A DNA stretch of 32,000 nt from Allobaculum fili (GTDB lineage Bacteria; Bacillota_I; Bacilli_A; Erysipelotrichales; Erysipelotrichaceae). Position 1 is the stretch's first letter. Each line of letters opens with the position of its first letter. Of the stretch, positions 6,337 through 7,581 are shown piece after piece. The translations under genes were made by a program, and so were the position numbers. Location: NCBI RefSeq assembly GCF_020969955.1, contig NZ_JAHDSX010000003.1, positions 30,001 to 62,000 on the forward strand, read 5' to 3'. The notes below the pieces were generated by a model that searched no databases, had not been told where the DNA came from, and saw only the letters and a program-made list of their open reading frames with translations.

Positions 6337-7143
6337 CTAGTTGTATTCAACGCGAACGCTGAGACCGGCACCAGCTAAAAGCGCGCCGTTAACGCTGACT
6401 CCCCAGACCCCCGGAGTATTGGCGTATTCAAAGCCGGCTTCTACACTGCCTACCGAGCCGGAAAGGCCCATCGTGATCGTAAGGCCTGCCAGATCGAAAG
6501 CCATTTCGCATTCACCGCGTGCCAGGGCAGCCCCAGCCTGAGCGGAAATTACCTGCTCGTCGACGGAGAAAACGCATTTCGCCTCTCCGCGGACCGAGCC
6601 GACTTCTCCTGCGGCGCGTACCGACGCATCAAACAGCCCCAGATCCACACCTGCAGCGGTTTCTGCTCCAAAGAGATGGGCCTGTCCCTGCGTCTGCAGA
6701 CTGAGCCGCGGATTGATCTGATTGTTTTTCATCAGTCGAAATCCAACGTTTCCCGAAATTCCGATCGACAGCCAGTCGTAATTCGCATACGCGTACAGAT
6801 GGTCCTGACTCCAGGTCCAGCCGCCGGCCTGATACGCGTAATTGGCACCCATCACGGCGTTTACCGTTCTCCCCCTCAGAAGACCGGCACCCGTTCCATG
6901 GGTGACAAAGGACGTGTTCCAGCCGGGGGTATTGGCCACATAGACCACGCGGCGATCGTACAGCGACGCTTCGTTGTTCTCGATCAGATCGGCGGTTCGC
7001 TCAAAGAAAGCCGCAAGCTGGTCGAGAGAATTCATGATCTGTGCGTGGCGGCTGTTGAGAATTGGACTGGTAAAGGAAGCTGACTGTTTCAGTGCCCGTA
7101 TGGACGCAGCAAGGGCTCTAAAGTCCTGGGTGTCGAAGGTCAT
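6337..7143 (-). CDS. Candidate T7SS substrate/effector: ~65-aa N-terminal helical region plus a Gly/Ala-rich beta-hairpin-like C-terminal domain (268 aa)
   Basis: The ATG at 7143 has AGGAG 11 nt upstream. N-terminus MTFDTQDFRALAASIRALKQ...LDQLAAFFERTADLIENNEASL. C-terminus has repeated alternating segments (GISGNVGFRL, AAGVDLGLFDASVRAAGEVGSVRGEA, GLTITMGLSGSVGSVEAGFEY, GVSVNGALLAGAGLSVRVEYN). There is no signal peptide. It lies directly downstream of two small helical proteins. Confidence 0.6.
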   Translation of the reverse strand: MTFDTQDFRALAASIRALKQSASFTSPILNSRHAQIMNSLDQLAAFFERTADLIENNEASLYDRRVVYVANTPGWNTSFVTHGTGAGLLRGRTVNAVMGANYAYQAGGWTWSQDHLYAYANYDWLSIGISGNVGFRLMKNNQINPRLSLQTQGQAHLFGAETAAGVDLGLFDASVRAAGEVGSVRGEAKCVFSVDEQVISAQAGAALARGECEMAFDLAGLTITMGLSGSVGSVEAGFEYANTPGVWGVSVNGALLAGAGLSVRVEYN

Positions 7144-7300
7144 TCCAGTTCAGCTCCTGAATCTGTGCCTGGATCTGGTTTTGGAGAAGGTGAATTCGCC
7201 GCAGAACGGCCTCGCGCTCGGCGCTTTCCAAAGAAGATGGCAATGCGTTTTTCAGCTGACTCAGACTCCAGTAGAGCGAGCGATAATACGCTTCTTTCAT
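7118..7300 (-). CDS. 60-aa predicted all-helical protein (Lap-like/WXG-partner-like adaptor candidate)
   Basis: MKEAYYRSLYWSLSQLKNALPSSLESAEREAVLRRIHLLQNQIQAQIQELNWNDL... Its ATG at 7300 overlaps the stop of the upstream gene (ATGA), and its 3' end overlaps the 268-aa gene by 26 nt. The longer 82-aa version in the ORF track would lie inside the upstream gene. Confidence 0.5.
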   Translation of the reverse strand: MKEAYYRSLYWSLSQLKNALPSSLESAEREAVLRRIHLLQNQIQAQIQELNWNDLRHPGL

Positions 7301-7581
7301 GCTTTGCCGCCAAGCGCTTCCTCGTTCTGGCGATAGCTCATCGCGGTGTCGCTCAGAAACGAGCAATAGGCGCTGACCAGTTCGATATATTTTGGAAAAA
7401 TGGGGCTGAGCTGTTCAAACTGCGCGAACGCGTCGTTTGCGGCAGGCGACTGCCAGTAGGCATTCATGCCCTGAATCAGGGAACGCGTACTGTTGAACGT
7501 GTTTTCCATCTCGGTTTTCAGAGTGCTTACGCGAGCGGCACAGCTTTCAAGCTGATCCGCGCTGATGGTAATCGATGACAT
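7297..7581 (-). CDS. WXG100-like small helical protein (W-Q-S variant), 94 aa
   Basis: Strong RBS GAGGAGGAG. ~95-aa helix-turn-helix layout with the central motif MNAYWQSPAANDAF aligned to WQGEDSAAF of the neighbouring canonical WXG100 protein. Confidence 0.7.
   Translation of the reverse strand: MSSITISADQLESCAARVSTLKTEMENTFNSTRSLIQGMNAYWQSPAANDAFAQFEQLSPIFPKYIELVSAYCSFLSDTAMSYRQNEEALGGKA

Follow-up and report, generated by a model that had tools for sequence, protein, structure and literature searches.

The question raised by this locus is what kind of protein a type VII secretion system (T7SS) of Allobaculum fili may export. The stretch analysed here (the window) comprises 32,000 nucleotides (nt) of contig NZ_JAHDSX010000003.1 and carries, at the distal end of a variant T7SS locus, an open reading frame (ORF) of 268 amino acids (aa), the effector, together with genes for two small partner proteins and a DUF4176 protein. 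The effector is best placed in a previously unannotated T7SS effector family, in which an all-beta cargo domain is joined to a minimal handle for export. The module is well beyond chance, since the family is conserved and syntenic and its covariation fits the predicted strand ladders. The best overall explanation, with a probability of about 0.5, is a substrate of the variant T7SS in which a helical handle carries chaperoned beta-hairpins that insert in a membrane. The initial annotation of this DNA had proposed an effector module tied to the T7SS, in which small helical partners accompany a C-terminal domain that is beta-rich, amphipathic and not enzymatic; this outline is supported by the results below.

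Gene set of the effector module

The module extends from 7581 to 5908 on the minus strand and contains the following features:

7297-7581, minus strand: WXG94, a 94-aa WXG100-family protein (Pfam WXG100), gene coupled to that of sm60 through ATGA
7118-7300, minus strand: sm60, a 60-aa helix-turn-helix protein without family match, candidate targeting or co-secretion partner
6337-7143, minus strand: effector ORF, 268 aa, ending in ...GLSVRVEYN
6958-7143, minus strand: effector residues 1-62, N-terminal helical hairpin (AlphaFold, helical periodicity, covariation)
6865-6957, minus strand: effector residues 63-93, linker of lower confidence (dip in the predicted local distance difference test, pLDDT), candidate DUF4176 site by analogy
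6343-6864, minus strand: effector residues 94-267, Gly/Ala-rich beta-meander domain (AlphaFold, direct coupling analysis (DCA), family profile)
5908-6276, minus strand: small DUF4176 protein, 122 aa (Pfam DUF4176, 86.5 bits), predicted Ltc-type chaperone

All coordinates hold for the three translationally coupled genes (94, 60 and 268 aa, with an ATGA and a 26-nt overlap) that had been described at first, with the minus strand as coding strand. The WXG94 ORF has a strong ribosome-binding site (AAGAGGAGGAG) and contains YWQSPAANDAF. The ATG of sm60 overlaps the TGA of the WXG94 gene, and the same ATGA junction was found in the loci checked. The sm60 and effector ORFs overlap by 26 nt in the window and by 17-26 nt in most loci checked; a 6-nt gap is present in locus L001. 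The DUF4176 gene follows the effector gene in the window after 60 nt. Homologs of sm60 and of the effector align from residue 1, which confirms both start codons. The effector has no transmembrane helix and no signal peptide (maximum Kyte-Doolittle value in a 19-residue window, 1.35), so that hydropathy bears out the earlier statement on the signal peptide. Neither the effector nor sm60 matches anything in Pfam or NCBIfam. For the effector this holds even at E ≤ 1, and its family profile matches no PDB sequence even at E ≤ 10.

The effector family and its conservation

Ten close relatives, all of about 267 aa, were returned by the first search, from Allobaculum, other Erysipelotrichaceae genomes and gut metagenomes. 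The exhaustive profile search yielded 211 cluster representatives (50% identity) at E ≤ 1e-3 and 44 at E ≤ 1e-30. In distant members the match is limited to residues ~95-267 and forms the C-terminal part of proteins 260-731 aa long, which makes the beta domain the family-defining module. The length mode of the family is 250-300 aa; most members carry only the helical export region besides the beta domain, and the N-terminal companions of the domain are mostly unclassified helical regions. In the cluster look-up every family member is named 'hypothetical protein' only, and a word-indexed search with the C-domain profile added neither members nor names. With no Pfam, NCBIfam or PDB match either, the C-terminal domain is indeed unannotated, as had been supposed. 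No plasmid homologs of the effector were found, and in the literature searched neither a beta-type T7SS effector or such a domain nor a T7SS in Allobaculum or Erysipelotrichaceae was found.

In one distant homolog (P0136, locus L015) the beta domain is preceded by an LXG domain recognised by Pfam (E 5e-10), and Lap-like genes lie upstream; an 89-aa upstream gene of this locus matches DUF3130 weakly (E 0.004). LXG is matched by only 2 of 150 family representatives. Because P0136 joins LXG to the same beta domain, 'LXG-like cargo' is a fair functional analogy, and to this extent the earlier description of an LXG-like module stands. It does not extend to the effector N-terminus, which is not LXG (PF04740): no Pfam match is obtained and the helical region has 62 aa, against ~200 in LXG. 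Another member, P0100 (L017 528-2723, 731 aa), consists of an N-terminal phospholipase/Mbeg1-like lipase, a helical middle, a hydrophobic Gly/Ala/Val stretch and a C-terminal beta domain. P0100 is possibly a 'reverse-arrangement' lipase toxin like TslA to which the beta domain is added.

Fifteen Erysipelotrichaceae loci (L001-L014 and L022) were compared. The order kinase, 641-aa protein, EssC, ubiquitin-like protein, WXG97, WXG94, sm60, effector, DUF4176 is kept in most of them. Locus orthology reaches down to 28% effector identity and takes in the PrsA-like rotamase genes and suf operon on the flanks. The effector evolves at about the same rate as EssC and the WXG100 proteins, and its C-terminus is its most conserved part. 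L007 and L008 hold only the sm60-effector-DUF4176 module. In L008, on the chromosome of Allobaculum mucilyticum strain 128, this orphan module (9844-11509) has no WXG94, and there is no T7SS core within 10 kb of it; on its flanks are genes for DUF285/LRR/DUF5648 surface proteins and an ISL3 transposase, and its DUF4176 protein (149 aa) carries an N-terminal extension.

Structure of the beta domain

The AlphaFold model used is based on a 67-sequence alignment (pLDDT 88; predicted template modelling score, pTM, 0.71). Strands are predicted at residues 94-113, 116-139, 142-167, 171-192, 197-218, 221-231, 237-243, 246-252 and 257-267, and the domain is an up-and-down antiparallel meander with strands of 20-26 residues. 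The first description of a helical N-terminus of ~65 aa and a beta-rich remainder agrees with this model and with the helical versus dyad periodicity of hydrophobic residues. Mean-field DCA of 165 family sequences (effective number, Meff, 158) gave an antiparallel ladder for every consecutive strand pair of the model (z = 3.5 to 9.6). Since the DCA ladders match the model, the beta domain is genuinely folded and evolutionarily constrained, and not of low complexity. Similarity between hairpin repeats was detected by hhalign with probabilities of 80-92%, which suggests that the hairpins are diverged tandem repeats. Hydrophobic/polar (H-P-H-P) alternation is local in most strands, with parity shifts and runs of small residues between. 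The last residue is Y, W or F in 119 of 159 members, after ...AG.G[F/L][K/R][V/I][K/R][V/I]x, an ending reminiscent of the beta-signal of outer membrane proteins (OMPs).

The structural neighbours found by Foldseek are weak ones only, namely transmembrane beta-barrels and the pore forms of MACPF and pleurotolysin. A few family members show sub-threshold Pfam matches to Porin_10, DUF4421 and HphA_C. The first AlphaFold model (11 sequences, pLDDT 64) gave spurious MACPF-like matches only and was superseded by the 67-sequence model.

Probable export handle and small partners

The N-terminal hairpin of the effector is formed by helices at residues 5-17 and 27-61 (pLDDT ~95 for residues 11-50). It is supported by helical periodicity and by DCA contacts between the two helices. 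Helix 2 ends in [Y/F/A/V/I]-E-x-x-[E/D]-x-x-L, which in the window reads I54-E55-N-N-E58. All 67 sequences of the alignment have an acidic residue at position 58 (60 E, 7 D); position 54 is Y in 18, F in 5, A in 16, V in 9 and I in 8 of them, which gives 23 of 67 with Tyr or Phe. Weak, sub-threshold WXG100 matches occur in the N-termini of 8 of 150 family members. The linker (residues 63-93; pLDDT 61-78) contains a short strand at 74-82 and a short helix at 85-89. By comparison with the Ltc-binding amphipathic helix of TelA (PMC12478183), it is a candidate binding site for DUF4176.

WXG94 matches Pfam WXG100 (PF06013) over residues 4-88 with 33.3 bits, above the gathering threshold of 27.3, and NCBIfam ESAT6_2 and WXG100_ESAT6 below cut-off. 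Weak PDB sequence matches are to ESAT-6-like and EsxA/EsxB proteins. Its motif is W-Q-S instead of W-x-G, and W-x-S is present in all nine orthologs aligned; WxSPA is conserved and the C-terminal Y-x-x-N-E, of the YxxxE export type, is invariant among them. Of the full T7SS core loci of the lineage that were inspected, only L013, which is without a clear canonical WXG100 protein (WXG97), lacks WXG94. The sm60 ORF, which carries the conserved pattern YY..L...L..L..SLP..LE..E..A, recurs in the Erysipelotrichaceae loci examined. The orphan L008 and the rearranged L007 keep it as well, without WXG94 or the T7SS core next to it. Proteins of the Lap1/Lap2 type, as which the small partners had been interpreted, they are not: WXG94 is a WXG100 protein and not DUF3130, and sm60 matches nothing. 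Signals for T7SS export are YxxxD/E in T7SSa and FxxxD on Lap1 in T7SSb. The YxxxE of WXG94 is of this type and the helix-2 motif of the effector is a degenerate form of it, which supports a composite helical targeting unit.

Pairing with DUF4176

Each of the 22 loci inspected has a DUF4176 gene as the next gene 3' of the gene for the beta-domain protein. These are the 15 Erysipelotrichaceae loci, L015, L017, L021 and the loci of three further distant homologs (L016, L018, L019/L020). The protein of the window (122 aa) belongs to the small subclass (70-130 aa), and its sole PDB sequence match is a small DUF4176 protein, 9DCS (E 3.7e-6). DUF4176 proteins are 37-53% identical to that of the window where the effectors are only 24-54% identical. 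The DUF4176 protein is thus more conserved across loci than the effector, the pattern of a co-inherited functional pair.

DUF4176 proteins were shown by experiment to be chaperones (Ltc) of T7SSb toxins, required for toxin stability and export and staying in the cytoplasm (PMC12478183). The membrane-depolarising toxin TelD requires the small DUF4176 protein of PDB 9DCS (PMC12478183), and in Streptococcus suis each C-terminal toxin type is partnered by small DUF4176 proteins (PMC12482557). Chaperone-bound regions of T7SS toxins were proposed to be membrane translocation elements (PMC12478183). As the family is one of published T7SS toxin chaperones, with 9DCS as the best PDB match, the window protein is best read as a holdase of the effector and not as a candidate for immunity. 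It is likely that the effector is exported by the T7SS and chaperoned by DUF4176. In one Erysipelotrichaceae lineage (L005 9106-9801 and L007 3603-4298) the gene 3' of the effector encodes a 'large' DUF4176 protein of 231 aa, with homology in its C-terminal part; the published division into large and small DUF4176 proteins (PMC12478183) is therefore crossed at one orthologous position.

Proposed mechanism and alternative explanations

In the proposed mechanism, effector residues 1-62 would act as a WXG100/PE-like helix-turn-helix with a degenerate YxxxE-type export motif. This hairpin would bundle with the co-translated sm60, and possibly with WXG94, into a unit recognised by the EssC ATPase. 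The Gly/Ala-rich beta domain of ~170 residues consists of four to five very long beta-hairpins, in which hydrophobic and polar residues alternate locally. The small DUF4176 protein would hold this aggregation-prone or membrane-seeking domain, or the linker that precedes it, soluble and export-competent in the cytoplasm of the producer, and is expected to remain in the cell upon export. Outside the cell, the freed hairpins would insert into a membrane, probably after oligomerising, and would permeabilise it or form a channel. For membrane insertion or permeabilisation as the effector activity, taken by itself, the odds are put at even or slightly below. It is quite improbable that the family represents the first beta-hairpin (beta-barrel-type) membrane-inserting class of Gram-positive T7SS substrate, kept unfolded by a small DUF4176 holdase, equipped with a PE-like handle and serving as a conserved core translocon or pore in the Allobaculum lineage. 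If this were true, the core pore could act on epithelial membranes of the host or make target-cell membranes passable for other T7SS cargo, and either use would explain the core-locus position and the missing immunity gene.

Several observations weigh against the insertion of exported hairpins in a membrane, or against the export unit as drawn. DCA of the 165 sequences gave no ladder closing a monomeric barrel and no convincing helix-sheet ladder. Strand alternation gives no single clean face, and the strands (~70-85 Å) are far longer than the thickness of a bilayer. No PDB fold match and no significant pore-forming toxin or barrel was obtained with Foldseek (best E 0.04, template modelling score ≤ 0.24). 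The export-type motif of the window effector is without Tyr (I54). WXG94 is missing from the orphan L008 module, and it may equally be an EsxB/TseA2-like core partner of WXG97 and not a dedicated effector partner. Finally, no immunity-like gene follows the effector and DUF4176 genes in the window or in ~15 orthologous loci; the next gene past DUF4176 in the window is an opposite-strand HTH_Tnp_2 gene. An antibacterial toxin that damages membranes would rarely be without one. The missing immunity gene, together with strict orthology, weakens the reading as an antibacterial toxin. A single-copy syntenic ortholog without adjacent immunity gene points to a lineage-wide core T7SS substrate and not to a polymorphic toxin.

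A family of soluble proteins of ~209 aa is encoded 3' of the small DUF4176 gene at L015 3032-3658, L017 3080-3709 and L019 6613-7242. Its members show 28-40% mutual identity and no Pfam match, and are candidate immunity or accessory proteins for beta-domain effectors. The family was not found in the window or in any Allobaculum locus. The 215-aa protein encoded at 16963-17610 was considered as its counterpart and rejected, for it shows no similarity and is a multi-transmembrane protein, in contrast to the soluble ~209-aa family. Homology of the effector to TelE, TspA or LXG1-CT3 was likewise rejected; the toxin domains of these proteins are alpha-helical (glycine zipper or transmembrane helices).

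A core substrate of this kind might also be a conserved secreted or surface structural protein, with beta-hairpins that self-assemble into a fibre, sheath, envelope conduit or adhesin, either as an accessory part of the T7SS or as a colonisation factor of a mucus-dwelling bacterium. Strict orthology and a fixed core-locus position across the lineage favour this explanation, as do a C-terminal domain more conserved than the rest of the protein (opposite to the pattern of polymorphic toxins), the missing immunity gene, the tandem hairpin repeat with strands far exceeding a bilayer, and a T7SS variant with no recognisable EsaA-like envelope-spanning component. It is nevertheless unlikely: the same domain is fused elsewhere to N-termini of the LXG and lipase toxin type, its constant companion is DUF4176, for which no role other than that of toxin chaperone is known to date (PMC12478183), and distant loci add a gene for a ~209-aa soluble or a small membrane protein, placed like immunity genes.

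The fusions also suit a membrane translocation or delivery module for attached or co-secreted cargo, which would not be a toxin and which in the Allobaculum lineage would be a stand-alone translocator for the other substrates of the system. The domain lies C-terminal to the phospholipase/lipase-like region of P0100, to LXG and to other long helical regions, and in two T7SS types it occupies a core-locus position directly after WXG100 genes; the DUF4176 study, too, discussed chaperone-bound toxin regions as translocation elements (PMC12478183). Yet the helical export region is all that most members carry besides the domain (hence the length mode of 250-300 aa), no other effector genes are visible in the T7SS operon of the window, and the idea is purely inferential, so that delivery is rated as distinctly unlikely. 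Very unlikely, finally, is a classical antibacterial pore-forming toxin of the polymorphic type with immunity encoded elsewhere, for example by the multi-transmembrane 215-aa protein (16963-17610) or at another locus. The membrane-active T7SS toxins TspA, TelD and TelE use DUF4176 chaperones (PMC12478183, PMC12482557, PMC10434224), immunity-like candidate genes follow DUF4176 in distant loci, and the multi-transmembrane gene, to which no function is assigned, flanks the locus. However, single syntenic orthologs with a conserved C-terminus are not polymorphic, the ~209-aa partner family is missing from the window and all Allobaculum loci, and the 215-aa membrane protein is unrelated to that family.

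Comparison with known systems

The LXG/Lap1/Lap2/Ltc systems of Streptococcus intermedius (TelA, TelB, TelD) share the operon logic of the window, with helical partners upstream, a helical export region and DUF4176. They differ in an export region of ~200 aa (62 aa in the window, without Pfam LXG match) and in their partners, which are DUF3130 (Lap1) and DUF3958 (Lap2) proteins and not a WXG100 protein and an unclassified 60-aa protein. In the window, moreover, DUF4176 is encoded downstream of the effector, whose C-terminal domain is conserved and not polymorphic, and there is no immunity gene.

TspA (Staphylococcus aureus), TelD (S. intermedius), TelE (S. gallolyticus) and LXG1-CT3 (S. suis) share with the effector T7SS export (predicted for the effector), a non-enzymatic nature and a proposed membrane target. 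TelD and the S. suis CT toxins need small DUF4176 proteins for stability (PMC12478183, PMC12482557), and the window has a DUF4176 partner gene. The domains of these four toxins are alpha-helical and have dedicated immunity proteins (DUF443, DUF5085), whereas the window domain is all-beta and unrelated in sequence, with none linked to it. To our knowledge, all characterised membrane-active T7SSb effectors (TspA, TelD, TelE) are alpha-helical.

The likeness to PE/PPE proteins of T7SSa, especially PE_PGRS with EspG, is architectural only. It comprises a short N-terminal helix-turn-helix with a YxxxD/E-type motif (degenerate in the effector), a separately encoded helical partner (a candidate in the window), a Gly/Ala-rich non-helical domain and a dedicated cytoplasmic chaperone (predicted in the window). 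Some PE/PPE proteins are membrane channels. No PE or PPE Pfam match was obtained for the effector or sm60, and no EspG match; the host is a monoderm of another phylum and the chaperone is DUF4176. With beta-pore-forming toxins (alpha-hemolysin, aerolysin, MACPF/CDC) and OMPs (OmpA/OmpF/OmpT, autotransporters) the effector shares long, Gly/Ser/Ala-rich, locally amphipathic antiparallel hairpins, and its ending ...h-x-h-x-[Y/W] resembles the OMP beta-signal. It differs from them by the lack of any significant match, of a soluble cap or rim domain and of a Sec signal. The host is a monoderm without BAM, and the window domain shows no sign of barrel closure.

The effector family bears on the means by which T7SS cargo passes through or harms target membranes. 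Experiments on what small DUF4176 proteins do are few, and the shielding of membrane-inserting helices is so far only proposed. The family is widespread (at least 211 clusters at 50% identity) and provides an all-beta cargo with a confident, covariation-supported fold and no PDB counterpart. Its invariant pairing with small DUF4176 makes a clean test case for chaperone function, and the 62-residue export handle could define the smallest T7SS targeting unit. Encoded in the core T7SS locus of mucus-associated gut bacteria of the Allobaculum type, the effector is a candidate factor of host or community interaction.

The surrounding T7SS locus

The effector gene set is preceded by the following genes, all on the minus strand:

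7685-7978, minus strand: WXG97, a 97-aa canonical WXG100 protein (WQG), EsxA/TsxA-type core substrate (Pfam WXG100, 45.8 bits; TIGR03930, 49.4 bits)
8090-8344, minus strand: 84-aa protein in the EsaB/YukD (TsxB) position, ubiquitin-like by position only
8341-11826, minus strand: EssC/TsxC-type FtsK/SpoIIIE ATPase, 1161 aa, with N-terminal FHA (Pfam FtsK_SpoIIIE, 79 bits; FHA, 24.5 bits)
11768-13693, minus strand: 641-aa protein with a C-terminal transmembrane segment only (hydropathy)
13733-15289, minus strand: 518-aa membrane Ser/Thr-kinase-like protein (Pfam, hydropathy)
15282-16859, minus strand: 525-aa DUF6382+FHA protein (Pfam)

The TIGR03930 score of WXG97 is above cut-off, and the protein is 53-65% identical among orthologous loci. 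The 84-aa protein has no Pfam match; its homologs occupy the same position in related loci, and the equivalent gene of L021 (80 aa) shows a weak YukD match. Within the locus (8090-16859) there is no EsaA, EssA or EssB Pfam match and no PPM phosphatase. The machinery resembles the T7SSe/j variants and not canonical T7SSb. With T7SSe/T7SSj (Garrett, Higginson and Palmer 2024, PMC11217815) it shares an FHA-containing EssC, a membrane Ser/Thr kinase (TsxD), a DUF6382+FHA protein (TsxJ), a ubiquitin-like protein and two WXG100 proteins (TsxA, TsxA2); a second WXG100 protein (TseA2) is a constant component of T7SSe (PMC11217815). It differs in that neither a PPM phosphatase nor a large Ig-like TsxI protein was seen in the window, and in that the beta-domain protein is absent from the components and substrates listed for these systems (PMC11217815). 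The same survey makes no mention of Erysipelotrichaceae or DUF4176.

The listed start of the EssC-like ORF, a TTG at 11826, lies within the end of the upstream 641-aa gene, which gives an overlap of 59 nt (11768-11826). The true EssC start in the window may be further downstream, and tblastn homology in relatives begins at query residues 7 to ~133. In L021, a T7SS of another type (EssC of 1490 aa, YukD-like gene), a 455-aa beta-domain homolog follows directly after a single esxA-like gene (9689-12729). It is followed by a DUF4176 gene, a 145-aa DUF3592-like gene, a second DUF4176 gene and a second WXG100 gene, a layout that looks duplicated or cassette-like.

On the other side of the T7SS locus of the window, the 215-aa protein (16963-17610, plus strand) is rich in Cys, Trp and Leu, divergently oriented and without family match; it had been named earlier as possibly involved in immunity. 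The HTH_Tnp_2 gene (transposon-related helix-turn-helix, 142 aa) is located at 5348-5776 on the plus strand, between the DUF4176 gene and the PrsA-like lipoprotein/rotamase genes. In orthologous loci its position is empty or taken by a gene for a 478-aa soluble protein with no assigned function (L001-L004, L009-L011), which makes the end of the T7SS operon a variable spot.

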